From: Candidatus Micrarchaeota archaeon
Lineage (GTDB): Archaea > Micrarchaeota > Micrarchaeia > Anstonellales > Bilamarchaeaceae
Assembly (NCBI GenBank): GCA_018812715.1
Contig: JAHJCT010000011.1
Coordinates: 114,614 to 178,613 of the forward strand
Direction of reading: 5' to 3'
DNA: 64,000 nt
The notes below the pieces were generated by a model. That model worked only from the letters and a program-made list of their open reading frames with translations. It did no database searches and was not told where the DNA came from. Position numbers and translations under genes: made by a program. Shown here in pieces: positions 41,931 through 63,000 of this stretch (position 1 is its first letter; every line of letters begins with the position of its first letter).

Positions 41931-44900
41931 ATGCGCGCATATCTTTTATTATTATTGATGATTTTAGCAGGTTTATCTTTTTCTATCGACGTTTCAAGCT
42001 GTGAGAATATCACAGCACCTGGTGTTTATGAACTAACTACCAATCTTGTAGGTGCACCTAATAATGCCTCTGAAGTATCGAGTATTGACTGGGCATGTAT
42101 AAAGATAGCATCTTCAGACGTAGTCTTTGACTGTATGGGATATACAATAACAAACGACGGAACTCTAGCTGCTGCAGGTATCGTTGTTAATGGTTCTAGT
42201 GGAATTAACTATCCCAATGTAACAGTAAGAAACTGCCCTTCGATTACACAATATTACTATGGTATTTACATTTATCGAACTAATGAAACTACCGTCACAA
42301 ATGTAACATTGTATAACAACACATATTCATTTGCTTCCCTTATATCTGATTATCTTAATCTCACAAATAACACAGCTTACGATCAAACTGCTGGTTTTGA
42401 GATTATTGGTTGTGCTGGATGCAGTCTTATTGATAATGTTGTTTACGATATGTCAGATGTTGGTATTGCTAGCAGTGGCTGTTTTTATTGTAATTTTATA
42501 AATAATAGTATGTATGACGGCTCAGATTATGGATTTTATATTGAGCAAACTGGTGATACTAATTTTATCAATAACACAGTTTTTGATATCTCTAATGATG
42601 CATTTCATATCAGCGGTGCTAGTGATTGCAACTTCATAAACAATACAGTCTATAACAGCCTCGATGGTATGGACCTTTATATGACCAGCAATATGACTAT
42701 CATCAATAACTCATTTTATAACAACAATGAAGATGCTATTGAAATTTATGAAGGTGGCGATAACAATTTATCAAATAACGAACTCTATAACAATGAACGG
42801 GGCCTCAGCATATACAATGCTTCTGCAACACGTGTAATCGGAGATCATTATTATAACAACAGCATAGATATCTTCGTTAATGGAACAGGAATAACAGTCG
42901 ATCTTTCTGGTGTTATCTTTGATAATGATGCTGGAACACTGGCAGATTACACAAACATCTCTTTAACTGATACAGTTGCATCCATCTACACTATAGATCA
43001 CGCAGTTCAACCCGCAGCACTACCGCCCAATATGGCGTCATTTGAAAATAAATTTGTAAACATTACAAATCTAACAAGCGGGGTTTCAATAGATACTATT
43101 ATCTGGCACTGGACAGAGGCTGAAACTGCTGGTTATACTGAAGCTAACTTTGAATTATGGAAATATAATGTTTCAGGTTGGGCCGATACTGGTGCTACCC
43201 CCAATACCGCAACTAACACATTCACTTTAACAAATCTAAATCCGGCAAGCACTTATGCAATATTGCAAACAAGTGTTTGTCCAGTTATAAGTTCAAGCGG
43301 AACATATGCCCAACTAGGCGATCTTGTTGGCGCCCCCAATTCTGCAAGTCCAGTTTTCGGTTCTGTATGTGTAAAGATAACTGCATCTAATGTTGTCTAT
43401 GATTGTAATGGTTATAGTATCACTAATGACGGAACAGGTTCTGCTATGGGTATAATGATTGGCAGAACATCAGATCTTAATCCAGAAATAACAAATGTTA
43501 CCGTTAGAAACTGCCCAAGCGTTTCGCAATATACCTATGGTATTTATACTCGCGGAGCTAATGATAGTTTCATAATTAATTCTACAGTTCACAACAATGC
43601 CGGCTATGGTACTTTCTTTATGCTCAGTAATGATATCACTGTTATCAATAGCACCGCACATAGCAATGGACTTGATGGATTTTATACCTCTACAAGTTCC
43701 ACATTTACTAATTTCTCCAATAACACAGCTTATAACAACACTCGTAGTGGTTTTGTTCTTTTCCCGGGAGCTAATAGTACAGTTTTGGATAACACTGCAT
43801 ATAATAACACGGAATATGGTTTCTACTGGAGAATGAGTGGTGGTAGTAACGCCATCAATAACACAGCACACAACAACGGGCTGAGTGGCTTCTATCTTTA
43901 TGATTCAGATAACAATACTCTTTTGAATAATACAGCGTACAATAATTCAAATGAAGGTATTCTTCTCGTTGATTCCAATAACAATGAATTCAATAATAAT
44001 GAAGCATATGAAAATTATGTTGGTATCTCAACTTATCATTCAGACTACAATACTCTGCAAAATAACTCGGTTCATAACAATGTAATGACTGCCATTGTTG
44101 TAAATAGTTCTTCTTATAACAATTTGACTAACAATACTATCTATAATCATCGCGGAGCGATGGGGCCAGCATTTGGAATTTATGTTGAAGCATCATCATA
44201 TCAAAATCAAATTACAGATAATAACCTCACTAATAACACGGTTTGTATAGTCCTGGGGGCAACCAGAACTGCATTTAATGGCGGTAACAATTGGATAGTA
44301 AATAACACTATGACTGATGCATATATGGGTGTTTTCCTTTACCTAGCTGATAATACATCTGTAATAGAAAATCATATCAGCAATGTTCCGGAGACGAGTG
44401 CAATTATCGTTTTAGGTTCTGATATTTATGGCATGTTTGGCGGCGGATATCTAGGCGCTTACAACAATACTTTCATTGGCAATGTAATAGAAAACAGTAC
44501 TGGTTTCATTTTCTACATGGCAAATAACAATGTAATTCAGTCAAATATTATAGCAAATGCCACTGGCTACTTTAATTGGTCTGACGCAGGGATTTTAGAA
44601 AATTATACTGGTTTTTACTTCTATGAATCCAATTATTCAAATCTGTCTGACAATTTAGTATACAATCTTTCTGGTTACGCACTCCACATAATCGATTCAG
44701 AATCTGTTAATGCCTCTGATACACATGTTTATAACAATGATAGAGGTGCTCTGTTTGTTTCTGCTTCAGTAGCAACAAATCTTTACTTATCAAACTTCAC
44801 AATAGATAATCCATCAGGCAACTTCCAAAATTATACAAGCATCTCACTTACTGATGCTGTTGATGGTGACAGTAAATATACTATTAACTGGTCATTCAAT

Positions 44901-47900
44901 TCAACTGCTTTACCTGCCAATTACTTTTCATTTGAAGGGAAATATGTAGATATAAGTCAATACAAAGGAGGAGTACCTAGTATAATAGATTCAATTACAT
45001 GGACTTGGCTAAATTCAGAGTTGTCAGGATATGATGAATCCAGATTTGAATTATGGCAATATAATGGAACTTGGACCAATATGGGTGCAACATTGGATAC
45101 TGGAGCAAACGCATTGACAGTAACAAACCTGAATCCAGAAAGTACCTATAGTATACTACAAAGTAATCTGTCTACATGTATGCTGATCAATTCTTCAGGT
45201 TATTATCAACTTAATACTAATCTTCAGGGTGCTCCAATAAATGCTGCCCCTCTAACCGGAACTGCTTGTATAAAAATAAATAGTTCAGATGTAGTCCTTG
45301 ATTGTAATGGATTTACTATTACAAATAATGGAACTGCTGGAACTACAAGAGGTATTCTAGCGGTAGGTCCAATCTCAAACATAACAATTTTCAATTGTCC
45401 AGGAATTGCAAATTATACCAATGGTATTGAGGTCGTTGAATCTAATGATACCTTAGTTCTAAATAATACGGTCTATGAAATTGGCACCGATGGTTTAAGT
45501 GTAACAAACTGTACCAACTCTGAATTTATCAACAACACAGCTTACAATATTACAGATGATGCCTTTGACTTTTACAACTGTACCAATATTACAGTGATAA
45601 ATAATACTGGCTATTTGATATTTAGTGGTGACATCTTTGAAAATAGTCTTTGCAACAATTGTGATTTCATAGATAACAGTGCTCTTGGAGGATTCGCCGA
45701 TGCCTTTGACTTTAATTATTGTAATAATACAAACCTCATAAACAATACCTTAAGTTTTGCTTTAGATAATCTTGTGGAAGCAACCTATTCTATAAATTGG
45801 ACCGTAATTAACAATACACTTCACGATGCTGGAAACGATGCCTTTTTCTTTGGCGATGCTGTCAATATTGTTTTCCTAAATAATACTGTTCATGATATAC
45901 AAAATGAATTCTTTGATATTGAACTTTGTAGTAATTGTAACCTCACCAACAACACAGGTTACATGTCATATGCTGGGGGCGGACTTAATCTTATTGATTC
46001 CAATATCATTACAGTAACAAATAACACTTTCTATGATGTTACTCTTGATGCTTCATATGCAGAAAATTGTACTAATTGTAATTTCATAAATAACACCGCT
46101 TATAACTCCACTGATGCAGATATATTTGATTTCGACAGATGTACTAACCTTACAGTAATGAATAATAGTGGTTTTCTAACACTTAACAGCAACATCTTTG
46201 AAACTAGCCGCTGTAATAATTGTGATTTCATAAATAATCTTGCTATGGGGGCAATAATTAATGCTAGTAGCGCCTTTGACTTTGCTGCTTGTAATAATAC
46301 CAACATCATAAACAATAATGTAACCTGGAGTATTAATGATCTTGTGCAAGTAAGTTATTGTATAAACTGCAGTGTAATCAATAACACACTTTACTATGCT
46401 GGGGGAGATGGTTTTGCTCTTGGTAAATCTATCAATTTTACTCTTTTAAATAATACAGTCAATGGTGTTATAGATGACGGAGCTGATATAAAAGAGTTAA
46501 ATGATAGTATCATTAGAAATAATTTATTATATAATATATCTGATAACGGTATTGAATTTTCTGAATGTGATAATTGCACTCTAATCAACAATACTATTTA
46601 TAATGTAAGTATTAATGGCTATTACTTAGATGAGATGACTAATTGTGTTCTTATCAATAATACAGCCTATGATATTGGAGACGATGGATATGATGGTGGA
46701 GATTCAAGCAATACTAATTTCACAAATAATTTAGCTTATGATACTGGAGGTGACGGTTTCCAATTTGAAGACTCTACTAACATCATTTTCCTTAACAACA
46801 CAGCATACGACAACCCTGAGTTTGGGTTCAGCCTAAACAACTCGCCGAGCAACACTTTTGTCAATAACACAGCGTATAATAATGGATATGCTGGGTTTGC
46901 TGCATTCCTTGGCTCTAATGGCAATAATTTCACCAGAAACCTGGCTTACAACAATACTGGTTTTGCACTCCTTGAAGTTTATAATACCAATCTGGATTCC
47001 AATATTGCGAGAGATAGTGAGGGTTATGGGGTCCAGGTAATTGGTCTTATGCTAGGCATACCATTTGTTGATGATCTAGATGACGTTGGTTTCCTTTTCT
47101 ATGAATCCGATAGTTCTATTGTATTCAACAATAGTGCTTACAATTTCACAGGAAACATGAGCGGAGATGAAGAATCATATGGTTTTGTTGTTTACTTAAG
47201 CGACAATAACAACTTCACCAACAATCTTGCACATACTACTAATGATTCCGGCTTCTTATTGCTAAATTCATCTTACAATAATCTTACCAATAATACTGTA
47301 TATGACAACCGGGAAGCTGGAATAGCTCTTGAAGAGAATTGTACTTGGAATATTCTAACTAACAACACTGCCCACCATAATGGCCTTATCGGTATTAATC
47401 TACAAGATGGTCCTTTCGCAAACGGAATATATGGAACAAATGCTTATAGTAATGGCTGGTGTTCCTTCCAAATTTTTGATGCTGATACGAATGGCTTCAT
47501 TAACAATACAGTGACTAATGACACTGGTTTCATTGTCATATTTTCCAATGATACTCAAATCCTTTCAAATACTGTAGCCAACAGCAGTGGAAGTGGAGTA
47601 AGCTCTTATATACCAACAATTGATGATAGTGGTGTTGTTTTGATATACTCTAACTACACTAATATATCTGATAATGTGGTTTACAATTTAACCAACAACA
47701 CATCTCATGCTTTCTATCTTGATCAAAGCAATAACAATCTTCTCATAAATAATACAGCTTATATTAATGGAGAAACAGGTTTCTATGTGCACAACTCCCA
47801 TTACAATACCTTAGTGAATAATACTGATAACAACAACCATGAAGGTTTTATTATTGACAGTGGCTCGTCCTTTAATATTCTCTATAACAACACGGCCATG

Positions 47901-48446
47901 TTTGACAATGGTTATCAAGTACTTGGTGCTGCATTCAACAATTCACTGATTGATAATACGGCTTATTATATAGAAGACAATGGTTTCAGTGTAAAAAATG
48001 GTGGCTTCAATACTACATTGATAAACAATACTGCATTATTCAGTGATGAAGCAGGCTATCTCATTATGATGTCTGATAATAACACGCTTTTCAATAACAC
48101 TGCATATAACAACTATGCCAATGGTTTCGAAATATTTATGGCTGCGGATAATCACCTCATCAATAACACTGCATACGAAAATAATGAATCAGGTTATTCA
48201 ATTGGCATGAATCTAGTTCCAAACTACTTCTTCAACAACACCGCATACGACAACAACTTCACTGGTTTTATGATCATGCAGAATAATAATAGTGATTTCC
48301 AAAACAATACAGTTCATGACAATGGTCTCATGGGCTTCTTAATAGTCTTGGCTGGCCACAACAATTTCACTAACAATACAGCTTATGACGGCAATGTAAG
48401 TGGTTTCTGGCTGGGTATGGATTCACGTTACAATGTTTTCACATAA
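41931..48446 (+). CDS. giant secreted right-handed beta-helix (NosD/PbH1-like) repeat surface protein, N-terminal 2171-codon segment
   Basis: Signal peptide. Dozens of ~22-aa NNTAYNN..GF.L... parallel beta-helix repeats organised into three super-modules, each opening with C...(S/A)PG.Y.L..NL.GAP.NA(S/A). Ends at a single in-frame TAA, see findings. Confidence 0.7.
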   Translation: MRAYLLLLLMILAGLSFSIDVSSCENITAPGVYELTTNLVGAPNNASEVSSIDWACIKIASSDVVFDCMGYTITNDGTLAAAGIVVNGSSGINYPNVTVRNCPSITQYYYGIYIYRTNETTVTNVTLYNNTYSFASLISDYLNLTNNTAYDQTAGFEIIGCAGCSLIDNVVYDMSDVGIASSGCFYCNFINNSMYDGSDYGFYIEQTGDTNFINNTVFDISNDAFHISGASDCNFINNTVYNSLDGMDLYMTSNMTIINNSFYNNNEDAIEIYEGGDNNLSNNELYNNERGLSIYNASATRVIGDHYYNNSIDIFVNGTGITVDLSGVIFDNDAGTLADYTNISLTDTVASIYTIDHAVQPAALPPNMASFENKFVNITNLTSGVSIDTIIWHWTEAETAGYTEANFELWKYNVSGWADTGATPNTATNTFTLTNLNPASTYAILQTSVCPVISSSGTYAQLGDLVGAPNSASPVFGSVCVKITASNVVYDCNGYSITNDGTGSAMGIMIGRTSDLNPEITNVTVRNCPSVSQYTYGIYTRGANDSFIINSTVHNNAGYGTFFMLSNDITVINSTAHSNGLDGFYTSTSSTFTNFSNNTAYNNTRSGFVLFPGANSTVLDNTAYNNTEYGFYWRMSGGSNAINNTAHNNGLSGFYLYDSDNNTLLNNTAYNNSNEGILLVDSNNNEFNNNEAYENYVGISTYHSDYNTLQNNSVHNNVMTAIVVNSSSYNNLTNNTIYNHRGAMGPAFGIYVEASSYQNQITDNNLTNNTVCIVLGATRTAFNGGNNWIVNNTMTDAYMGVFLYLADNTSVIENHISNVPETSAIIVLGSDIYGMFGGGYLGAYNNTFIGNVIENSTGFIFYMANNNVIQSNIIANATGYFNWSDAGILENYTGFYFYESNYSNLSDNLVYNLSGYALHIIDSESVNASDTHVYNNDRGALFVSASVATNLYLSNFTIDNPSGNFQNYTSISLTDAVDGDSKYTINWSFNSTALPANYFSFEGKYVDISQYKGGVPSIIDSITWTWLNSELSGYDESRFELWQYNGTWTNMGATLDTGANALTVTNLNPESTYSILQSNLSTCMLINSSGYYQLNTNLQGAPINAAPLTGTACIKINSSDVVLDCNGFTITNNGTAGTTRGILAVGPISNITIFNCPGIANYTNGIEVVESNDTLVLNNTVYEIGTDGLSVTNCTNSEFINNTAYNITDDAFDFYNCTNITVINNTGYLIFSGDIFENSLCNNCDFIDNSALGGFADAFDFNYCNNTNLINNTLSFALDNLVEATYSINWTVINNTLHDAGNDAFFFGDAVNIVFLNNTVHDIQNEFFDIELCSNCNLTNNTGYMSYAGGGLNLIDSNIITVTNNTFYDVTLDASYAENCTNCNFINNTAYNSTDADIFDFDRCTNLTVMNNSGFLTLNSNIFETSRCNNCDFINNLAMGAIINASSAFDFAACNNTNIINNNVTWSINDLVQVSYCINCSVINNTLYYAGGDGFALGKSINFTLLNNTVNGVIDDGADIKELNDSIIRNNLLYNISDNGIEFSECDNCTLINNTIYNVSINGYYLDEMTNCVLINNTAYDIGDDGYDGGDSSNTNFTNNLAYDTGGDGFQFEDSTNIIFLNNTAYDNPEFGFSLNNSPSNTFVNNTAYNNGYAGFAAFLGSNGNNFTRNLAYNNTGFALLEVYNTNLDSNIARDSEGYGVQVIGLMLGIPFVDDLDDVGFLFYESDSSIVFNNSAYNFTGNMSGDEESYGFVVYLSDNNNFTNNLAHTTNDSGFLLLNSSYNNLTNNTVYDNREAGIALEENCTWNILTNNTAHHNGLIGINLQDGPFANGIYGTNAYSNGWCSFQIFDADTNGFINNTVTNDTGFIVIFSNDTQILSNTVANSSGSGVSSYIPTIDDSGVVLIYSNYTNISDNVVYNLTNNTSHAFYLDQSNNNLLINNTAYINGETGFYVHNSHYNTLVNNTDNNNHEGFIIDSGSSFNILYNNTAMFDNGYQVLGAAFNNSLIDNTAYYIEDNGFSVKNGGFNTTLINNTALFSDEAGYLIMMSDNNTLFNNTAYNNYANGFEIFMAADNHLINNTAYENNESGYSIGMNLVPNYFFNNTAYDNNFTGFMIMQNNNSDFQNNTVHDNGLMGFLIVLAGHNNFTNNTAYDGNVSGFWLGMDSRYNVFT

Positions 48447-50114
48447 AATACAGTATATAATCATAGCTTTGGATTTATGATAAATTCTAGTTTATCTAAC
48501 AACTTCACCAATAATATGGTTCATGATATTCTTTGGCAAGGTTTCAATTTCTGGAATGCTAGTGATTCTGTTCTTACCAATAATAATGTTTATGGAAATG
48601 ATGTAGGTATAGGGCTTGATACATGTGGAGATAATTATTTGATTAACAATGAACTCTATGATAATAGCATAGGCCTTGGCATCGTCAATTCTTCTGCAAC
48701 TTTTGTAACAAGAGATCATTACTATAACAATACTATTGATTTTGGAGTCAATGGAACCGGGATAACAATTAATCTCTCAGAAGTTATCTTTGATAATCCA
48801 TTAGGAAACTTTGTCAATTTCACAAACATCTCTCTAAACGACACAGTTGCATCTGCTTATTCAATAGATCATGCAGTCGAACCTGCTCCATTGCCAACCG
48901 GTGCAACATCCTTTGAAAATAAATTTGTAAATATCACTAATGCCACCTCAGGCGTTTCAATAGATTCCATCGTCTGGCATTGGACAGATGCTGAATCAGT
49001 AGCATATGATGAACCTGCGTTTGGAGTATGGGAATACGATGGTTCTTGGTCAGATACTGGAGCAACTCTTGATACTGCAGCAAATACTCTTAGCCTCAGC
49101 AATCTTGCTACATTCAGCATTTTTGCAATTCTAGAATCTCCTGAAGATGAAGAAAATCCAAGTGATGAAGATAAAGAGTTTAGTCTATCATTTGATTCAA
49201 CATGTGATGGCAATACTCTAACTGTTACTTATAATGGCAATCCAGTTCCTGGTGCCTCAGTCAATGTCTATAATCCAACTACTATGCAAACCATTGCCTT
49301 AGGTACTACAAATGTTAATGGTGAATTCGAATTTAGTGGTTGTGACCTTACGATCCAAGTTCATGTTAGCAAAACTGGTTACGATTCTGAGACAGTTACC
49401 GAGCAATTAATTAACTGCGAACTTTGCCTAGAAGAAGAGGAACATCTTGAATGTGTGGATGATTTATGCATTGTTGTTCCCGGTCTTGGTCCAAATCTTT
49501 GCTCTTTAGATGCTGACTGCATGGAACCAGTGTACGAATGTTACTCAGATAATGATTGTGACGATACTGACTACTGTGACATTCTAGAAGGCGAAGCTGG
49601 AGGCAATTGTTTACCTGTTACTGGCGACTGTGGTTATGCACAAAATCATACTTGGGTTCAATATGAGTGTGGAGTTGATCCAGAATGTGTCCTTTGCCCA
49701 GAAGGTTTAGTTTGTGTAGAACATCAATGTGTAGAGGCCAATCTTACTGGTCCAGGTGAAGGATTTGTAGATGCTGAGGTTGATATAATCGCTACAATCA
49801 ACAACGAAACTTGTGCTTACTGCGATATTGAAATTGTTGATCCAACTGGCGAGCATTTCACTGGTTTAACAGATGAAAACGGAAGGATCCAAGTTCCATT
49901 GAATCTCAAGGGTCAATATACAATTACGCTTCTACAAAATGGACAAGTACTTGCTTCAAAAACAGTAGATGCGATTCCAAAGGCCCCACCTACAGACGAA
50001 CCCCCCCCAACAGAAAAGATTGGTGAGGACTTTACCTGGCTGTGGTTATTCATACTTTTAGCTGGCTTCTTTATTCTGTTCTTCTACTGGAGACAAAGGA
50101 AAAAGAAGAAATAA
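48447..50114 (+). CDS. in-frame continuation of the beta-helix surface protein: C-terminal segment with Cys-rich domain, TM anchor and KKKK tail
   Basis: Same frame as 41931..48446 with no further stops. Repeats a 170-aa module of the upstream segment almost verbatim. Ends ...FTWLWLFILLAGFFILFFYWRQRKKKK. Lacks its own signal peptide. Confidence 0.6.
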   Translation, partial: NTVYNHSFGFMINSSLSNNFTNNMVHDILWQGFNFWNASDSVLTNNNVYGNDVGIGLDTCGDNYLINNELYDNSIGLGIVNSSATFVTRDHYYNNTIDFGVNGTGITINLSEVIFDNPLGNFVNFTNISLNDTVASAYSIDHAVEPAPLPTGATSFENKFVNITNATSGVSIDSIVWHWTDAESVAYDEPAFGVWEYDGSWSDTGATLDTAANTLSLSNLATFSIFAILESPEDEENPSDEDKEFSLSFDSTCDGNTLTVTYNGNPVPGASVNVYNPTTMQTIALGTTNVNGEFEFSGCDLTIQVHVSKTGYDSETVTEQLINCELCLEEEEHLECVDDLCIVVPGLGPNLCSLDADCMEPVYECYSDNDCDDTDYCDILEGEAGGNCLPVTGDCGYAQNHTWVQYECGVDPECVLCPEGLVCVEHQCVEANLTGPGEGFVDAEVDIIATINNETCAYCDIEIVDPTGEHFTGLTDENGRIQVPLNLKGQYTITLLQNGQVLASKTVDAIPKAPPTDEPPPTEKIGEDFTWLWLFILLAGFFILFFYWRQRKKKK

Positions 50115-55344: not shown

Positions 55345-56391
55345 TCAGGGTACAACTTTCCTATCCTTTTCTTTTTTTATATTAATCGCATAAAAGATTT
55401 CTTCACTTAATCCTCTCCTCGTGATTTCTCTACATAGTTGTGGATCAAATTTAAAAAGGCCACTTGTCTGTCTAAGATTATTCTTAGTCATTATAAGAAC
55501 TGCTGCATCAATTATTGCCTTATCACTGAGAAATCTGGAACCCTTCGGTAAAATTACTCCACGTGGCGGCATTATAGATACTAAAGGAATTCTTGTATCT
55601 CCCTCATCCATAATCTCACTATTAATACGCAGTACCAGACCTCTTCGGTATATGTGCTTAACAAGATGCCTATCCCTATCCTGGAGATGACCAATTGTTA
55701 AAATATCTCTATCGGCCAGCTTTCTAAGCGCAGTAGAAATGATATATTCATCGCTTTCTCGAATATATGGATCCGCTTTAGGGCCAGCCCTGCTAGGACC
55801 TCCATATGTACCTCGTTTTTTCTTCACACAATCCATTACCTGTTGCGTGAGTCTTTTTTTGTATAAGATCCCTACAAGATAATTCTCCACTTGCCGAAGG
55901 TCTTTGATTGTCTCATAATTCAAACCAATTATTATATCAACAGCACCATCAATCAATTCTTGGTCTGTAAGCGATTTCCAGTGCTCTTGTGATTTTGGTA
56001 CATAAGAATCTTTAGCTGACAACTGATCATCAGAAGTTTCAAGTGTTGCGGATTTTTTCTGAGTATCACCCCCTATTAGAACTGTTGCATGTAAAGAAAG
56101 AATTGGAGTAATATCAGTTGTTGCAAGTTCACCACTATCAAAAAGCATTTGTACTGCTGGAATGAAATCAGATTCGGCTAACTCTGCAATACTATGTTGC
56201 GCACTTAGTTGCTCTTCACGAGCAGAAGCTTTCACATGAGTCTGGACTGCCGCAGCCATAAGGAGAACTGAAGGAGTTTGCATACACTCCTCCATAAGTG
56301 AATATCTCGTGAACCTTTTCTTGACTTCATCGGAAGCACTCCTATAAATATCTCTTACAGTCCTTCGTAACTTCTTTAGTTGTGGTTGCAT
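55345..56391 (-). CDS. hypothetical protein
   Basis: 348-aa ORF with good coding character. No motif recognised (no P-loop, no Cys cluster). Confidence 0.4.
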   Translation of the reverse strand: MQPQLKKLRRTVRDIYRSASDEVKKRFTRYSLMEECMQTPSVLLMAAAVQTHVKASAREEQLSAQHSIAELAESDFIPAVQMLFDSGELATTDITPILSLHATVLIGGDTQKKSATLETSDDQLSAKDSYVPKSQEHWKSLTDQELIDGAVDIIIGLNYETIKDLRQVENYLVGILYKKRLTQQVMDCVKKKRGTYGGPSRAGPKADPYIRESDEYIISTALRKLADRDILTIGHLQDRDRHLVKHIYRRGLVLRINSEIMDEGDTRIPLVSIMPPRGVILPKGSRFLSDKAIIDAAVLIMTKNNLRQTSGLFKFDPQLCREITRRGLSEEIFYAINIKKEKDRKVVP

Positions 56392-56532: not shown

Positions 56533-59500
56533 ATGCGATTTACATATTTTGTCTTGATTTTGGCTTTAATTAGCTTGGGATTTGCCATCTCACCTTTGGC
56601 CATTGATGTTCTAGAACCTGCTGGTGATATAGAAATAAACCAAAATAGAATATACAATGTAACTGTTAATGTATCATGTAATGTTGGAGATTGTGGAGAT
56701 GTTAATGTCTCTTTGGATAATTTTCCAACTTCATGTAAAGCAATCTTAGATCTAGGTCAAAGTATTGGCGATGGAGAGTATACTATATACCCAGCCAATC
56801 ATCCTTCTGGAATAGATGTTTATTGTGATATGACCACTGATGGCGGGGGTTGGACCTTGGTATTTGCAGGTATGGGAAGCACCTCAACTTATGCTTCTAC
56901 CTGGTCAGGCTGGTTTTCTGAAGGTTCAACCACAGAAATAACTGATAAAAGCACCGAAGGAAAAAGTCCAGCATATGATAGTGTTACAGTGAGTACTTTA
57001 ATGCTGGAGTCAACTTATGGAACAGACGGAATAATTATCGCAGATTTAGATCAAACTTATTCCAGTCTTCTGGATCTGGTTGGACCTGATCCAGGGTATA
57101 ATGATGGAAGCACTTCCTGGGATAATGGATTAAAAGGGCCATTTACTGCCAATTATCCTCATACTGGTGATCATTTTGTTAATGATTGGATTAGGATATG
57201 GGTTGGAGATGGAGATTATGATGAGCAGGATAGAGTTGTTTTTGCTACCCAACTTGGTGAAGGGGACTGGTCTGGTCATGATAATCCCGGTGCAATTGGC
57301 GGCGAATACCAAACAGCAAGAGATGGAAGTGATTGGTACTACGTATGGGTGAGAGAAGAAGGCACATATGAATCGTATTCTGATGTCATTACGATAAATA
57401 ATGGCGAATCCGAAATCGTAATCTTTTCAGTAAATGCAACTGTTATCGGAAATTACACTTATTATGCTTATGCAGAAGAGGTTTCTAACCCATCTGTCAA
57501 CACAACTAGTAGCACCTGGAATGTAACTGTATATCCCCCTATACAGGTTATTTTTTCATCTCCAGGAAAATATGTTTCTGGCAATGATGTTACCGTAAAT
57601 CTCACCACAAGGTATTTTGTGGAAGGTCTAGACAGTATCTGGTGGAATAATGGAACAGCAAACCAGACATATTCAGGAGAAACTACTGACTATTATCCAG
57701 ATGGGTTTTATACATTTACTGCATATGCCAATGACAGTGCTGGTTATCTGGCCTCAACAATACTAAATTTCAACGTCAATATATGTGGTTTGGAACTTGA
57801 TTCTGATTATACACTTGAATATGATCTTGATTGCAGTGAATATTCTGAAGCTGCAGTTATTATTACTGAAGAAAATGTTACTCTTGATTGTGATGGCCAT
57901 TCAATAATCGGTCCTGGTTATGATACAGGAGTTTATTCCGAGTATGATAATACTATTATACAAAATTGCATTATAAGTAATTTTAATGAAGGTATACAGT
58001 TCTATGATTCTTCTAATGGCTTTATAATCAACAATACTTTTGACTCAAATTATTATGGTCTTTGGCTTGGGGAAAACTCAGATAATAATATAGTTACTTA
58101 CAATACTTTCACTTCAAATGATTATGGATTTTATTTAGAATTTGCCGATAACAACCAAATAGGGCATAACACAGTTGATATGTCGTATTCTAATTTTGGT
58201 GATTCTTCCTGTCCCTTTGTTTATGCATGGAATGGCGAAGAGTATGACTTCATAACTGATTTTTCCAGCAGTGGCAGATTAGCAGCTTCGAGTAAGGGAA
58301 CCCCAAGGGTCTACTATGACTATGTGAAACTTTCAAATGAACAATTAAAACCAGAATCTGGTTTTTACCAAATTCAATTAACAGAAGAATACGATGAAAT
58401 CTCATATGTCGATGAGCTCACATTAATTACAATAGACCATCCATCTGATTATGATGTTTACACTGGATTTACTATGGATGATAAAAGCGATATTTATACA
58501 GTTAGCAAAACTTTATTGCCAATTGAATCATGTGTGGATGAATCAGGGCAGGATTGTACGTCTGAAGTTTCTACCAAGGATGGCATATATACTGAAAAAG
58601 CAGATGGTGTAAATAAAAAAACATTTGAGCTTGATCTTGGTGATCTTTCAGAAGATGTTAAATTAGTTATAACTTATGCAAAAGCTCTCGACCTTGATCT
58701 GGATGACGAGACAAGATCAATTCAGATAAAAAATTCAGAAGGTGTTTGGACTGATTTATATACTCATTCCGAGTTAATCTCTTCTCCAAATGCCCCAAAT
58801 ACCTATGTTCTTGATCTTACTGGGTTATTGGTCTATGATAATTCAGTAAAATTAATACTTCCAGAAGGATTAATTGACTATCTTGCAGTTGATACTTCGC
58901 CACAACAAGAAGTAGTTGTAAACGCATATTCTCCTGATTCTGCAAATCTACACTACCATGGTTATTCTGAAGATATTAGCAACGATGTAGTTGATTATGA
59001 TTATTATTCTCTTGCATCACTTCGAAATAACGAACCCACTGGTTACTTCACTAAATATGGAGATGTTAACGAACTCCTTACTTCAACTGATGATATGTAC
59101 GTTATCATGCACGATGGTGATGAGATTTCAGTTGAATTCCAATACAATGCTCCAGAAGAGGGGATGACAAGAGATTTCCTTGTTTACAGCTGGTATTACT
59201 ACAAACCTGCAAAGAAATTTTTAGATGATTATACTGTTGATCCATTACCATTTGTTGGCATGAGCACTTATCCATATCCAGAAGGAGAAACTTACCCACA
59301 AGATGAAGAACATCAAGCTTATCTTTCGGAATGGAATACCCGATATTACGAAAGACCAATGAGAATGGGCGGCTCATTACCGTATTCCTTCAATAATACA
59401 GTATTTGAAAATACTATTATAGGAAGTAGTTCTGGTTATGGTTTATATCTATACGAGGAAGATTCAACATTGTTGCTAAATAACAATATCTCAGATGTAG

Positions 59501-62094
59501 AGATTGGTATTTATCTAGAGGATTCAAGTTATACTTTAATTAGTGGAAACAATATATTCGATGTCGAAACAGGTATGTACCTTGGTGATTCTGATTATAA
59601 TGAAATCTATGAAAATGAAATAGAAGCTTTTGAGGGCAGAGGAATTAATGTTAGGTACTCTGATTACAATGAAATCTTTGATAATATACTCTTTGTAGAC
59701 AGTACCGATAATTGTGATTATGGCGGACCTGGCTGTGGAGGAATTTATGTCGTTGGCTGTTCTTATGTGAACATAATCACTGACAATGACATTACTTCCC
59801 TTTATGGTCATGGTATTGCTATCGGTGGTTGTGGCGAAGACAACGACTTCATTGGCAATACGCTAACTATAACTAACGATGAAAGCAACTACTACGCATT
59901 CTATGCCTTTGAAGGTGGTGATGGCTGTTCTTACTACAATACTTTCTTACACAACAGAATTTTCAGCGATTACTGGATCTATGATGATTGTGATGGAAAT
60001 GACTATAGCGATGATTATTCAGGAAATATCTACTATTTTGCAGATGCAACTCCAAGCTGGGAAGTGTACGATGATCTTTATGATACTACAGACCCAGAAG
60101 ATGGTTGGGCAGATGAAGGAGATTTTGTACCATTTAGTTATGGTACTTTAGAAGATGAAGATCTGTGGTATGATTATGGTGAAGATTGGCATCCAGCACT
60201 AACAGATGACCCATCCATACATTCAGTTGATGTTGAATTAGTTTCTCCTGAAGATGAAGCACAAGCGTTAAGTCCGATTATTTTTACTTACATACCATCA
60301 GTTGGCTGGGAAGGCCAAACTATCGAAAATTGCGATATAACTGTTCAAACTGTTGAAGGAGGAGAAGTAACTGAAATAGATCCAGGTGAACAAGATGGTT
60401 TAGTTGCTTTATGGCACTTTAACGATGATTATCTTGATTCATCAGGAAATGGCCATGATGGAACTCCTGAAGGTGATACTTATCTCACTCCTGATTCGCG
60501 ACTTGGCGATGGTGCGGTATTTCTAGATGGTGATCTTGATTATGTATCAGTGCCTGATTCAGGTGATTTTGATGATGGCCCTGATCTTACCTTTGCTGCA
60601 TGGGTACATTTTGATGGAGAATCTACAAATTGGAATAGAATAGTTTCAAAACGTCTAGATTGTTGTGATGGAGAACCGGGTTGGGAGATCACTCTCGATG
60701 GTGGTGATGGCACAGATATTTATGTATCTGATAATGGCTGGGGAGGATTTATCAACGGCCAGTGTGTTGACAGCTGGACTGATGGTAATTGGCACCATGT
60801 TGCTGTTACATACGATGAAGATACTGCATCAGTATATTGCGATGGTGAGTTCAAATTTTCAGGAGCAGTTAATTCAATAAGTCCAAATGACCAAGATTTA
60901 CTTCTCGGCAAAATTGAATCAGAAGATAGTACTAGTTGGGTTGGTGCTATGGATGAAGTTGCCATCTGGAATCGTGCTCTCTCAGAAGATGAAGTGGAAG
61001 AACTTTATACTAGCTATACTTACTATACTGACTCTTCCTCTTCAATAGATGAAGGTGAAGAAAATACATTCACAATGGAATTACCTGATGGTGAATATTA
61101 TTGGAGTGTTGAATGTACTGATAATCTGGATATAACTGGAGAATCGGAAACATGGCTTTTAACAGTTGGTGAAGAAGAACCTCCAGAAGAAGATGGTAAT
61201 CCATCTCCTTCAAAACCACAACTTTCAATTGATCTAGATAGTTCCTGTGAAGACAACACAATAACCGTTACAAGCAATGGCGATGAAGTTGCCGGCGTTT
61301 CAGCAACTGTCCTTAATTACGATACTATGACCAACATTGCAAGTGGAAACACAGATGCAAATGGTGAACTGAGCTTCAGTGATTGCGGCAAAACTGTAAA
61401 AGTAAGTGCTTCAAAATCAAATTACAAGTCTGCAACTGGCATATACACACTTGATGACTGCTGTGAAGAAGAACAAGTTGGTTGTATAGATGATTCAGAT
61501 TGTCTTTCAACAAAAGAATGTGTTAATGGTGCCTGCGTTGCTGTTGAATGTGAATGTGGCACAGTTCAAAACCACCAATGTGTTCCATATGACTGTTGCT
61601 TAGATTCAGACTGCAATGAAGGTGAAGTTTGTACTGAACATGCGTGCGTATCGGTTCCTGTTGAGCCAGAATGCACTTCTAATGATGACTGTGCTTCAGG
61701 AATGGAATGTAGTAATGGAATTTGCATTGAAGTCGAACCACCTGAGGATCTTGAAGATTTAGCGACCCAAACAATAAATACTGCTCAAGACGCAATAGAT
61801 ACTGCCAAATCAGAAGGCAAAGATACAAGTGAGGCAGAAGCAAAGCTTGCAGCAGCATGGGCCGCATATGAAGCAGGCAATTTTGAAGAAGCAAAAAATC
61901 TTGCAGAAGAAGCAAAGCAATTGGCACTCAATGCAGCTGCACAACCAGCAAATCAAACAGGAACAGAAATTGAAGTTACTGAAACTCAACAAGACAATAA
62001 TGTCGTCTTTGTAACTGTTTTCTTACTATTGGTATTAGCAGCATTATGCATTTACTGGGTTGTCTCACGAAAACCTGCTAAGAAGAAAAAATAA
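56533..62094 (+). CDS. giant mosaic surface protein: signal peptide, fibrinogen-related domain, beta-helix repeats, LamG/ConA-like lectin domain, Cys-rich modules, TM anchor and KKKK tail
   Basis: 1853 aa. SGIDVYCDMTTDGGGWTLVFAGMG is the fibrinogen C-terminal-domain hallmark. NosD-like beta-helix repeats (NCIISNFNEGIQFYDSSNGFIINNTFDSNYYGLWLGENSDNN...). LamG-like block (LDGDLDYVSVPDSG...LTFAAWVHFDG...WHHVAVTYDEDTASVYCDGEF). C-terminal Cys-rich module homologous to the 48447..50114 tail. TM VVFVTVFLLLVLAALCIYWVV followed by SRKPAKKKK. Confidence 0.65.
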   Translation: MRFTYFVLILALISLGFAISPLAIDVLEPAGDIEINQNRIYNVTVNVSCNVGDCGDVNVSLDNFPTSCKAILDLGQSIGDGEYTIYPANHPSGIDVYCDMTTDGGGWTLVFAGMGSTSTYASTWSGWFSEGSTTEITDKSTEGKSPAYDSVTVSTLMLESTYGTDGIIIADLDQTYSSLLDLVGPDPGYNDGSTSWDNGLKGPFTANYPHTGDHFVNDWIRIWVGDGDYDEQDRVVFATQLGEGDWSGHDNPGAIGGEYQTARDGSDWYYVWVREEGTYESYSDVITINNGESEIVIFSVNATVIGNYTYYAYAEEVSNPSVNTTSSTWNVTVYPPIQVIFSSPGKYVSGNDVTVNLTTRYFVEGLDSIWWNNGTANQTYSGETTDYYPDGFYTFTAYANDSAGYLASTILNFNVNICGLELDSDYTLEYDLDCSEYSEAAVIITEENVTLDCDGHSIIGPGYDTGVYSEYDNTIIQNCIISNFNEGIQFYDSSNGFIINNTFDSNYYGLWLGENSDNNIVTYNTFTSNDYGFYLEFADNNQIGHNTVDMSYSNFGDSSCPFVYAWNGEEYDFITDFSSSGRLAASSKGTPRVYYDYVKLSNEQLKPESGFYQIQLTEEYDEISYVDELTLITIDHPSDYDVYTGFTMDDKSDIYTVSKTLLPIESCVDESGQDCTSEVSTKDGIYTEKADGVNKKTFELDLGDLSEDVKLVITYAKALDLDLDDETRSIQIKNSEGVWTDLYTHSELISSPNAPNTYVLDLTGLLVYDNSVKLILPEGLIDYLAVDTSPQQEVVVNAYSPDSANLHYHGYSEDISNDVVDYDYYSLASLRNNEPTGYFTKYGDVNELLTSTDDMYVIMHDGDEISVEFQYNAPEEGMTRDFLVYSWYYYKPAKKFLDDYTVDPLPFVGMSTYPYPEGETYPQDEEHQAYLSEWNTRYYERPMRMGGSLPYSFNNTVFENTIIGSSSGYGLYLYEEDSTLLLNNNISDVEIGIYLEDSSYTLISGNNIFDVETGMYLGDSDYNEIYENEIEAFEGRGINVRYSDYNEIFDNILFVDSTDNCDYGGPGCGGIYVVGCSYVNIITDNDITSLYGHGIAIGGCGEDNDFIGNTLTITNDESNYYAFYAFEGGDGCSYYNTFLHNRIFSDYWIYDDCDGNDYSDDYSGNIYYFADATPSWEVYDDLYDTTDPEDGWADEGDFVPFSYGTLEDEDLWYDYGEDWHPALTDDPSIHSVDVELVSPEDEAQALSPIIFTYIPSVGWEGQTIENCDITVQTVEGGEVTEIDPGEQDGLVALWHFNDDYLDSSGNGHDGTPEGDTYLTPDSRLGDGAVFLDGDLDYVSVPDSGDFDDGPDLTFAAWVHFDGESTNWNRIVSKRLDCCDGEPGWEITLDGGDGTDIYVSDNGWGGFINGQCVDSWTDGNWHHVAVTYDEDTASVYCDGEFKFSGAVNSISPNDQDLLLGKIESEDSTSWVGAMDEVAIWNRALSEDEVEELYTSYTYYTDSSSSIDEGEENTFTMELPDGEYYWSVECTDNLDITGESETWLLTVGEEEPPEEDGNPSPSKPQLSIDLDSSCEDNTITVTSNGDEVAGVSATVLNYDTMTNIASGNTDANGELSFSDCGKTVKVSASKSNYKSATGIYTLDDCCEEEQVGCIDDSDCLSTKECVNGACVAVECECGTVQNHQCVPYDCCLDSDCNEGEVCTEHACVSVPVEPECTSNDDCASGMECSNGICIEVEPPEDLEDLATQTINTAQDAIDTAKSEGKDTSEAEAKLAAAWAAYEAGNFEEAKNLAEEAKQLALNAAAQPANQTGTEIEVTETQQDNNVVFVTVFLLLVLAALCIYWVVSRKPAKKKK

Positions 62095-62160: not shown

Positions 62161-63000
62161 TTGACCACAATACTTTTTATGAGGCAGGTAACTAGACAAC
62201 TTGATAAACGACCAGTTATTATAACAAAAGATAAATGCCCGTTGACCGATACTCTTTGGTTTCCAATAAAACCAGAAGATGCTAGAGAAATGCATTTACT
62301 TGATCTATCTGGAGCTTTGAAACTTTGGCATCCTGGCATAGACTCAAGAATATTTCTTCTTTGTAGAAATGGACAACAAATGGAACGAAGTCTTTCTTCT
62401 AAGAAAATTTTATCTTTTGCTGACATTTCAGATGCGGCAAAACAGGGCTGTGAAGGAATTGTTATTCCGACTACAGCAATTGACATACGTTGGGTAACTC
62501 GTGCTGATATGATAGATAGAAATATTATGGAATTATCAGTTAGATTGGCATTACTAATAACGTATACTAATGAAATTCCAGCGGTTTTAGATCTACATGA
62601 TGCGGATAAGGCCCTGGGGTCCTTGTCTTTACAATTTGGAAACTGCTATCATATGTCCACATTATTAACCGCCATACTTAGAAAAAACGGAGTTCCTGCG
62701 CGTTTAGTTGGTTATGAAGATGAATCCGATGCATCGCCCAAAAATCATTGGTGGGTTCAAGCATATGTTGATTCTGAATGGAGAGATTATGATGCTTGTT
62801 TTGTGCCTGCTTTGTTACAACATGCAGTTGCTCAGGCCACCAGTTCAATTAGAAAAGACAAGACACTTAGAAAAGCCCTTGTATCTGCTGTTATTGATAC
62901 TCTTGAAGAATCAAGAATAAAACAACCAGTAACATTTGTAGAGGATAAAAAATACAGGTATGGTATAGAAGGATTTGTGCCAGCTGAATTTGAATTATAA
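62161..63000 (+). CDS. transglutaminase-like cysteine protease superfamily protein
   Basis: GNCYHMSTLLTAILRKNGVPARLVGY...NHWWVQAYVDSEWRDYD has Cys-His-Asp catalytic-triad spacing typical of transglutaminase-like domains. Confidence 0.6.
   Translation: MTTILFMRQVTRQLDKRPVIITKDKCPLTDTLWFPIKPEDAREMHLLDLSGALKLWHPGIDSRIFLLCRNGQQMERSLSSKKILSFADISDAAKQGCEGIVIPTTAIDIRWVTRADMIDRNIMELSVRLALLITYTNEIPAVLDLHDADKALGSLSLQFGNCYHMSTLLTAILRKNGVPARLVGYEDESDASPKNHWWVQAYVDSEWRDYDACFVPALLQHAVAQATSSIRKDKTLRKALVSAVIDTLEESRIKQPVTFVEDKKYRYGIEGFVPAEFEL

Follow-up and report, generated by a model that had tools for sequence, protein, structure and literature searches.

Fibrinogen-related domains (FReDs) of the PF00147 type occur in fibrinogen beta/gamma C, ficolins, FIBCD1, tenascin and angiopoietins, and the related intelectins (human intelectin-1, PDB 4WMQ; Xenopus XEEL, 4WMO; lamprey LSVL, 7E1E) are secreted, soluble immune lectins of animals. 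Ligand binding is common to ficolins, FIBCD1, tachylectin-5A and intelectins; it mostly depends on Ca2+, and the ligands are for the most part glycans or acetyl groups on the surfaces of microbes. Finding a FReD-like domain in a prokaryote is not new, because such domains have already been catalogued by NCBIfam as NF040941 (GGGWT_bact, 'fibrinogen-like YCDxxxxGGGW domain'); in most members the domain forms the C-terminus of a protein of 240-490 amino acids (aa). As for the DPANN archaea, MJ1_0451/0701/0776/0179 of Nanobdella aerobiophila and lectin-like proteins of Nanohalobium contain pectin-lyase-like beta-helices, immunoglobulin (Ig) folds and concanavalin A (ConA)-like lectins; the roles suggested for them are recognition of the host, attachment to it or degradation of its wall (bioRxiv 10.1101/2023.10.27.564410). 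Here we analyze an open reading frame (ORF), 56533..62094 on the + strand, that lies in a 64-kb stretch of DNA (contig JAHJCT010000011.1; hereafter 'the window', meaning the whole of the DNA analyzed) from a Candidatus Micrarchaeota archaeon and that encodes a protein of 1853 aa ('the target'). Near its N-terminus, the target is predicted to contain a complete member of the fibrinogen-related superfamily, shaped most like an intelectin and nested in a small beta-rich scaffold.

The coordinates of this gene are exact in the ORF listing of the window, and an identical protein is held by NCBI (MBU0532111.1, from a Candidatus Micrarchaeota archaeon metagenome-assembled genome), where it is annotated merely as a parallel beta-helix repeat protein. 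The initial annotation had singled out the ORF for the peptide ...CKAILDLGQSIGDGEYTIYPANHPSGIDVYCDMTTDGGGWTLVFAGMG..., which we locate at residues 68-114; in a six-frame translation of the window, the GGGW / YCDxxxxGGGW match is unique to this peptide. Two curated hidden Markov models (HMMs) recognize the region above their thresholds. NF040941 scores 58.9 bits (cutoff 30) at residues 67-110 over its full profile (1-46/46), and the hallmark residues are all in place: C68, Y97-C98-D99 and G104-G105-G106-W107; the C68/Y97-C98-D99/G104-G106-W107 columns are invariant or nearly so among 99 family sequences. Pfam Fibrinogen_C (PF00147) scores 29.9 bits (cutoff 22) at residues 66-125, but only over profile positions 3-61/221. 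Sequence searches of the PDB matched FReDs and intelectins only: a single-sequence search placed human FIBCD1 first (E 2e-10, 43-47% identity over ~55 residues), with alignments that end at fragment residue ~73, and when PDB sequences were scored with a broad family profile, intelectins came out best (XEEL, 1e-15). None of the PDB entries returned by our fold and sequence searches is annotated as prokaryotic.

Most of 112 database homologues cover just 16-25% of a 282-aa query. Nearly all of them continue after the motif with 150-220 residues that end in a hydrophobic strand plus Arg/Lys (...ELWVK, ...TVWVR), usually at the C-terminus of the protein; because the target has the same closing strand (YYVWVR, residues 268-273), we could delimit a unit of ~210 aa, residues 62-274. 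This unit contains the C68-C98 pair, YCDMTTDGGGWT, an acidic loop (GD226-G-D-Y-D230-E-Q-D233) and the closing strand. In its Cys pair and YCDMTTDGGGWT, in its match to all 46 profile positions, and in having the strand with Arg/Lys ~150-220 residues after the motif, the domain resembles the rest of NF040941. It differs in its position, being N-terminal in a protein of 1853 aa and nested, and in the 165 residues that follow GGGWT. The latter are highly divergent: among the first 112 homologues, P0001 alone aligns there, and an exhaustive HMMER search with these residues through 1.84 billion representatives recovered 32 relatives at E<=1e-3, a small subfamily that aligns well across the whole domain. 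The subfamily conserves W127, G143-K144, A147-Y148-D149, D226, D233, F237, D245, G256 and E258, of which all but W127 and G143 are invariant or nearly so, and its alignment shows a GD.s.D..D loop after a beta-strand. Among the subfamily members P0199, P0203, P0209 and P0213-P0218, which match the divergent part, some have no N-terminal Cys...YCDM...GGGWT segment, and P0199 and P0203 carry the divergent part as tandem repeats. The B/P-like part of the fold can thus apparently exist without the signature motif, and motif-based searches would miss those relatives that have no such segment.

Structural modelling relied on this 32-member subfamily. A first AlphaFold2 model, built on a heterogeneous, full-length alignment of 99 sequences, had a predicted local distance difference test score (pLDDT) of 57 and matched only ~50 columns in Foldseek, and was uninformative. 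With a 26-sequence alignment of the subfamily, AlphaFold2 gave a mean pLDDT of 91.9 and a predicted template-modelling score (pTM) of 0.91 for residues 62-274. Foldseek found 152 PDB matches to this model at E<=1e-3, and the best 50 of the 152 are all intelectins or FReDs; intelectin-1, XEEL and lamprey LSVL align with E 5e-9 to 9e-8 and template-modelling (TM) scores of 0.59-0.63 at 16-19% identity, whereas canonical FReDs reach TM scores of 0.40-0.47 only. The model has the three-dimensional fold of FReDs and that of intelectins, and a chance occurrence of the motif is ruled out by the two HMM matches together with this confident fold model. Because of the HMM matches and the predicted fold, we assign the domain to the fibrinogen-related superfamily; the model describes a complete member, nearest in shape to the X-type lectins, with intelectin-1 as the closest structure.

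Within this superfamily, the domain is neither a canonical FReD nor a true intelectin, and belongs to NF040941. It has in common with canonical FReDs the A subdomain, disulfide included, and the initial strands of the B subdomain, as far as the W..(Y/W)..G motif; its P-subdomain region is not recognizable by sequence, and we found no match over the A+B+P subdomains (~220 positions) that define a canonical FReD. With intelectins it shares GGGWTLV, as opposed to the GGGWTV(F/I)QRR of FReDs, and a h-aromatic-h-R ending (LLFYR in intelectin-1, VWVR in the target); the intelectin-1 sequence, which we checked against 4WMQ, ends ...AAVLLFYR, the type of ending seen in the prokaryotic family. Intelectins are larger (~280 aa, compared to ~210 aa), are only 16-19% identical to the domain, have HENxxxGxCTxGD and eight cysteines where the target has no such motif and two cysteines, and are secreted as soluble proteins, whereas the archaeal domain is a module of a membrane-anchored one. 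The initial annotation's claim of a fibrinogen C domain, which it proposed to check by HMM search and structure prediction, therefore needs to be divided: the Fibrinogen_C match is significant, the predicted fold is fibrinogen-related and superfamily membership stands, but the canonical FReD does not, since similarity ends after ~60-90 residues, the second disulfide is lacking, and intelectin-1 rather than a FReD is the nearest structure.

It had also been suggested that such domains are rare in prokaryotes and that modules of the protein might have been acquired horizontally. We scanned one genome per GTDB species with six 8-residue peptide patterns from the query (one of them YCDMTTDG): at least 599 stretches matched, and at least 465 were confirmed as relatives in the species-representative bacterial and archaeal genomes. 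With that many relatives in a single scan, and an NCBIfam model devoted to it, the family is not rare. Predatory bacteria account for 33 of the best 80 loci (Bdellovibrio-like organisms 10, Myxococcota 19, Bradymonadia 4), DPANN archaea for 11 (Woese-, Pace-, Nano-, Aenigmat- and Micr-archaea, and Iainarchaeum) and Patescibacteria (Candidate Phyla Radiation) for 6, which makes 17 of 80 for the latter two together, while the other 30 include several Pseudoalteromonas; this predominance of predators and episymbionts is a tally that describes the 80 loci most similar to the query, not a controlled test of enrichment. What is notable is that most of these organisms live by attachment to other cells.

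A recent transfer of a canonical fibrinogen C domain from an animal could account for FIBCD1 being the best single-sequence match in the PDB, and for the presence of cnidarian proteins among the 112 homologues. We regard such a transfer as very improbable. Similarity to animal FReDs ends after ~60 residues, and the remaining 165 residues have just the 32 relatives described above, and among the closest of these we traced four: P0193 (4842 aa) and P0202, both from Woesearchaeota; P0200, which has an archaeal pilin/flagellin-like N-terminus and the FReD-like domain at its C-terminus; and P0185, a fragment (933 aa) of the target itself, nearly identical in sequence. Identity in the motif rises to 76% with P0003 and P0016, which fall in one cluster with a named Bdellovibrio sp. 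protein, and at least 465 prokaryotic loci carry the family. The GC fraction across the gene (0.35-0.40) is unremarkable, being inside the range of the window (0.32-0.41), and, taken as a whole, the domain is closest to proteins of DPANN and to prokaryotic proteins from metagenomes; there is accordingly no indication of acquisition from eukaryotes. A link to phage receptor-binding proteins has been proposed for the origins of intelectins (PMC9682848); a tblastn search of the domain against 50,697 phage genomes gave no match, so that such a link is not supported for this subfamily. We also observed two FReD-like matches (L001, L020) within ~14 kb of each other, at 130-144 kb of the 371-kb Woesearchaeota contig CAZEYD010000001.1, which suggests a cluster of lectin-bearing surface-protein genes.

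Another key observation to emerge from these comparisons concerns how the domain is held in the protein. When we excised it in silico, residues 23-61 and 276-337 aligned continuously to an uninterrupted copy of the scaffold in P0193 (residues 2994-3099; 33% identity, E 1.6e-14). Furthermore, the target aligns collinearly with a metagenomic protein of 1649 aa, P0189 (1611 positions, 49% identity), and the sole large indel between the two is the Laminin G (LamG) block of the target (residues 1272-1496), which sits in the middle of a beta-rich domain and is absent from P0189. These alignments show both predicted lectin-like domains to be insertions nested in small beta-rich host domains, and the one with P0189 makes directly visible the domain shuffling that the initial annotation had invoked. 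The scaffold that hosts the FReD-like domain (~100-115 aa) takes the form C..CG.INVsLDP / insert / tPFYTN..NPYN.sLN.GES..itfwVNATG...WNVTI. At least 12 copies of it are present in P0190, P0192, P0193 and P0194, with the insert always in the same loop; P0192, P0193 and P0194, which are Woesearchaeota and metagenomic proteins of 1303-6223 aa, have repeats of the scaffold, each with a different insert of 160-550 aa. Among the inserts are further FReD-like domains, a MAM domain of InhA-like type (43.6 bits), CBM_4_9 (28.5 bits), a Gly-rich domain, a segment that weakly resembles NIDO, and others of no recognized type. Our expectation had been that the hosts are CARDB-like; scanned against Pfam in excised form, the scaffolds gave nothing significant, for which reason we name them only 'beta-rich scaffold'. 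Searching with a profile of the scaffold alignment (A5) yielded 4 short fragments only, and was uninformative as to the range of the scaffold. Members of the FReD-like subfamily are themselves fused to three LamG domains (P0202), a YadA adhesin stalk (P0205), MopE metal-binding repeats (P0204) or the pilin/flagellin-like N-terminus of P0200.

The rest of the protein is also built of recognizable parts (Table 1), among them the beta-helix, the LamG-like block and the shared Cys-rich module that the initial annotation had described. The whole protein scores 84.3 bits with Beta_helix (PF13229; cutoff 25.9) and 82.6 bits with NosD-type repeats (cutoff 23.6), in each case in two blocks (residues 440-549 and 948-1064 for Beta_helix), and 80 bits with TIGR03804 (cutoff 19.45) in 5 stretches. 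Membership of the NosD copper-maturation family itself can be rejected (TIGR04247, 36.9 bits against a cutoff of 300): the repeats are of this generic type only. The LamG-like block, previously placed at ~60400-60900, matches Laminin_G_3 (PF13385) with 95.2 bits (cutoff 27.6) at residues 1333-1488 (nt 60529-60996; profile 2-150/151). Residues 1549-1706 of the anchor-proximal module are 36% identical over 200 aa (E 3e-28) to the product of a neighbouring ORF, 48477-50114, confirming that the Cys-rich C-terminal module is common to the two surface proteins; CarboxypepD_reg scores 41.9 bits in this paralogue, which likewise ends in a transmembrane helix followed by RQRKKKK, and DUF7107 scores 23.1 bits on the module of the target, just below its cutoff of 24.6. 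The target is strongly acidic (D+E 18.5%, K+R 3.4%). Its hydrophobic N-terminus and its single C-terminal transmembrane helix, followed by KKKK, place residues 62-274 at the membrane-distal end.

Table 1. Features of the 1853-aa surface protein and its upstream region, in positions of the window
Feature	Position (nt)	Strand	Residues	Basis and remarks
TATA-box-like element TTTATAAA	56504..56511	+		~25 nt upstream of the ATG; read from the sequence
Putative signal peptide (MRFTYFVLILALISLGFAISPL)	56533..56598	+	1-22	Hydropathy peak at residues 1-28
Host scaffold, N-terminal half, beta-rich (...IYNVTVNVSCNVGDCGDVNVSLD)	56599..56715	+	23-61	Alignment to P0193, A5
Predicted fibrinogen-superfamily, intelectin-like lectin domain, nested in the scaffold	56716..57354	+	62-274	
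Host scaffold, C-terminal half (...ITINNGESEIVIFSVNATV...STWNVTVY)	57355..57543	+	275-337	Scaffold alignments
Second beta-rich domain, probably Ig-like	57544..57783	+	338-417	Sequence pattern only; no significant Pfam match (best Big_13, E 0.077)
Parallel beta-helix block 1	57784..58197	+	418-555	Beta_helix 53.9 and NosD 49.5 bits at residues 440-549
Conserved ~385-aa module (SCPFVYAWNGEEYDF...), interrupting the beta-helix	58198..59355	+	556-941	71 homologues
Parallel beta-helix block 2	59356..59982	+	942-1150	NosD 61.9 and Beta_helix 59.7 bits at residues 948-1064; TIGR03804 repeats
Acidic linker and N-terminal half of the LamG-hosting beta-rich domain	59983..60345	+	1151-1271	Collinear with P0189 to residue 1271; no Pfam match
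LamG / ConA-like lectin block	60346..61020	+	1272-1496	Laminin_G_3; insertion relative to P0189
LamG-hosting beta-rich domain, C-terminal half	61021..61170	+	1497-1546	Aligns to P0189 right after the indel
Anchor-proximal module: Ig-like (CarboxypepD_reg-like) domain, then three Cys-rich repeats	61177..61725	+	1549-1731	
Ala/Glu/Lys-rich helical segment	61750..61947	+	1740-1805	Composition; sub-threshold TPR and DUF4398 matches only
Transmembrane helix (residues 1822-1843), Lys-rich cytoplasmic tail SRKPAKKKK, stop codon	61996..62094	+		Hydropathy peak at residues 1820-1849

Bearing in mind this architecture, we hypothesize that the target is a type-I, membrane-anchored giant surface protein that would be exported by its signal peptide and held in the membrane by the C-terminal transmembrane helix and Lys-rich tail. 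The Ig-like and Cys-rich anchor module, the parallel beta-helix split by the 385-aa module, and small beta-rich domains would then form an extracellular stalk, on which two lectin-type domains may be displayed: the distal, N-terminal FReD-like domain of ~210 aa and, further down, the LamG/ConA-like domain. In this arrangement the intelectin-like domain would be the contact tip, with a candidate metal/ligand site formed by the conserved D149, D226, D230, D233, D245 and E258. We lean towards a function as a multivalent glycan-binding adhesin for contact with another cell, presumably the archaeal host of an episymbiont, and rate its chances as somewhat better than even. The analysis shows which domains are present, their fold class and nesting, the topology signals and how the family is distributed; that glycans are bound, that Ca2+ is required and that the host is the target is inferred. 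The adhesin agrees with what the initial annotation had proposed, a carbohydrate- or host-surface-binding adhesin, and is the most plausible function by inference from domain content and context. The lineage of the organism consists of obligate episymbionts. We favour an adhesin because export and a C-terminal anchor leave the FReD-like domain distal, its structural relatives bind ligands and a second lectin-type domain (LamG) is present; because the same scaffold loop carries binding modules in relatives, and the fusion partners of the subfamily are adhesin parts; because the subfamily conserves the residues listed above, including the acidic loop; because many of the best 80 loci belong to predators or to episymbiont radiations; and because the target comes from an episymbiont lineage, and proteins of other DPANN that combine beta-helix, Ig and lectin domains have been suggested to recognize hosts.

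The related C-propeptide of fibrillar collagens nucleates trimer assembly, and by analogy the FReD-like domain might be mainly a structural or oligomerization unit of an S-layer-like envelope protein, with no role as a ligand-binding lectin. Relatives show weak COLFI (PF01410) matches, and intelectins and ficolins are themselves trimers. Against such a role stand the recognized binding modules, MAM and CBM4_9, that the scaffold loop carries in relatives, and the distal location of the domain in a protein anchored by a single pass, and we consider it improbable.

A more substantial alternative to the adhesin arises from the stalk. Pectate lyases and tailspike depolymerases typically have the parallel beta-helix fold, and the target could be a surface-tethered enzyme that degrades polysaccharide, with the beta-helix and/or the 385-aa module as the catalytic part and the FReD-like and LamG domains as carbohydrate-binding modules directed at an environmental polymer or the host envelope. 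The PbH1/NosD-type parallel beta-helix scores are strong, and the 385-aa module (residues 556-941) has invariant E, D, H, Y, R and K positions, with acidic and His residues that include E72, D77, D85, H86, D133 and E369 (A4 numbering). This module has 71 homologues (E down to 5e-89), which are mostly the C-terminal part of archaeal and bacterial proteins of 400-690 aa, from Thermoproteota, Bathyarchaeia, Ignavibacteria and [Eubacterium] cellulosolvens; in one of them it follows a UnbV_ASPIC domain. Pectin-lyase-like proteins of DPANN have, moreover, been proposed to degrade host cell walls (bioRxiv 10.1101/2023.10.27.564410). On the other hand, no catalytic family was matched (TIGR04247 reached only 36.9 of the 300 bits needed); the 385-aa module has no Pfam or NCBIfam match, and its profile matched no PDB sequence; and the transmembrane anchor, stalk and distal lectin, together with YadA-stalk and pilin-like fusion partners, point to adhesins. 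We therefore regard an enzyme as rather unlikely, though it deserves more weight than the structural role; it is compatible with a lectin role of the FReD-like domain, and differs in end purpose only.

Several observations weigh against the adhesin that we prefer. Beta-helix proteins can be enzymes instead of stalks, the 385-aa module within the stalk matches no Pfam or NCBIfam family, and the preponderance of predators and episymbionts is, as stated, a descriptive count. The binding site raises further doubt. Canonical FReDs have a second conserved disulfide in the P subdomain, beside the ligand/Ca2+ site; since there is no Cys between C98 and C418 of the target, this disulfide is missing. 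In hIntL-1, according to what Wesener and colleagues reportedly described in 2015, the Ca2+ ligands and aromatic box of the ligand site are N260, E262, E274, H263, W288 and Y297. The structural Ca2+ consensus of intelectins, HENxxxGxCTxGD, follows GGGWTLVASV, and intelectins have eight conserved cysteines (PMC9682848). That Ca2+ motif is absent from the target, which reads GGGWTLVFAGMGSTSTYASTW; in the reliable part of an hhalign alignment, the intelectin HEN lies opposite M-G-S and the GD opposite A-S, and with only C68 and C98 in the domain, six of the eight intelectin cysteines are missing. Alignments with the subfamily profile to PDB sequences end at position ~70-93, and hhalign of this profile against intelectin-1 is unreliable beyond ~70 columns. 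Because both the Ca2+ motif and the P-domain disulfide are absent, a binding site, if there is any, must be built differently.

As to the genomic setting, an archaeal S13-S4-S11-RpoD cluster lies just upstream, and together with the NCBI record it confirms that the protein is archaeal. The TATA-box-like element in front of its ATG would fit a leaderless or short-leader archaeal transcript, for which a resemblance to the consensus in an AT-rich spacer is weak evidence. The nearest upstream neighbour (55345-56391, - strand) is a 348-aa ORF with no Pfam match; immediately adjacent downstream (62161-63000, + strand) is a protein with a transglutaminase-like core (PF01841, 46.4 bits). Across all 64 kb of the window, ARAGORN detected no tRNA gene, and no Rfam family reached its gathering threshold. 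We also noted that 41931..48446 (+ strand; 2171 aa, 13 Beta_helix stretches) and 48477..50114 (+ strand; 545 aa), the ORF of the paralogous anchor module, are in the same frame with a single TAA between them, at 48444-48446, and that a beta-helix repeat reads through this stop (...SRYNVFT*NTVYNHSFGF...). A signal peptide opens the first of these ORFs, and a transmembrane helix with RQRKKKK closes the second; the two make up one surface-protein gene of ~2727 aa (41931-50114) with an in-frame stop, which could be a pseudogene, a sequencing error or a case of readthrough. Recoding of the stop codon is not indicated, because all three stops are in use elsewhere in the window (TGA 19, TAA 17, TAG 10).

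The target resembles the surface proteins described from other DPANN, by description only, in being large, probably glycosylated and extracellular, and in combining a parallel beta-helix with Ig-like and ConA/LamG-type domains; a fibrinogen- or intelectin-like domain, or a nested display, is not in their descriptions (bioRxiv 10.1101/2023.10.27.564410). We found no literature on FReD domains in DPANN, nor on Bdellovibrio fibre proteins as fibrinogen-like. Within the literature searched, three points appear to be new: the assignment of an intelectin-like fold to this small subfamily centred on DPANN; the display of the domain as a nested insert of a recurrent scaffold, in which other binding domains are found as well; and the preponderance of predators and episymbionts among carriers.

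We speculate, as a tentative idea that is more doubtful than the adhesin function itself, that the intelectin-like YCDxxxxGGGW domain may be one cargo of an undescribed 'display cassette' system of DPANN, in which a scaffold of ~115 aa would present, from one loop, interchangeable FReD-like, MAM, CBM4_9, Gly-rich or other domains on giant proteins that recognize hosts. In a wider view, episymbionts and bacterial predators may have in the FReD/intelectin fold an ancient prokaryotic lectin for targeting cells, from which animal intelectins and FReD immune lectins possibly derive.

The common assumption that FReD-like domains are rare in prokaryotes needs correcting. For the question of how DPANN episymbionts recognize their hosts and hold on to them, a distal lectin domain of defined fold offers a concrete, expressible candidate. 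A structure of the archaeal domain would link the innate-immune lectins of animals (ficolins, intelectins) to prokaryotic relatives. Finally, the nesting of insert in scaffold illustrates a way for giant surface proteins of archaea to exchange binding modules; should this design be general, it accounts for the speed at which such proteins diversify.

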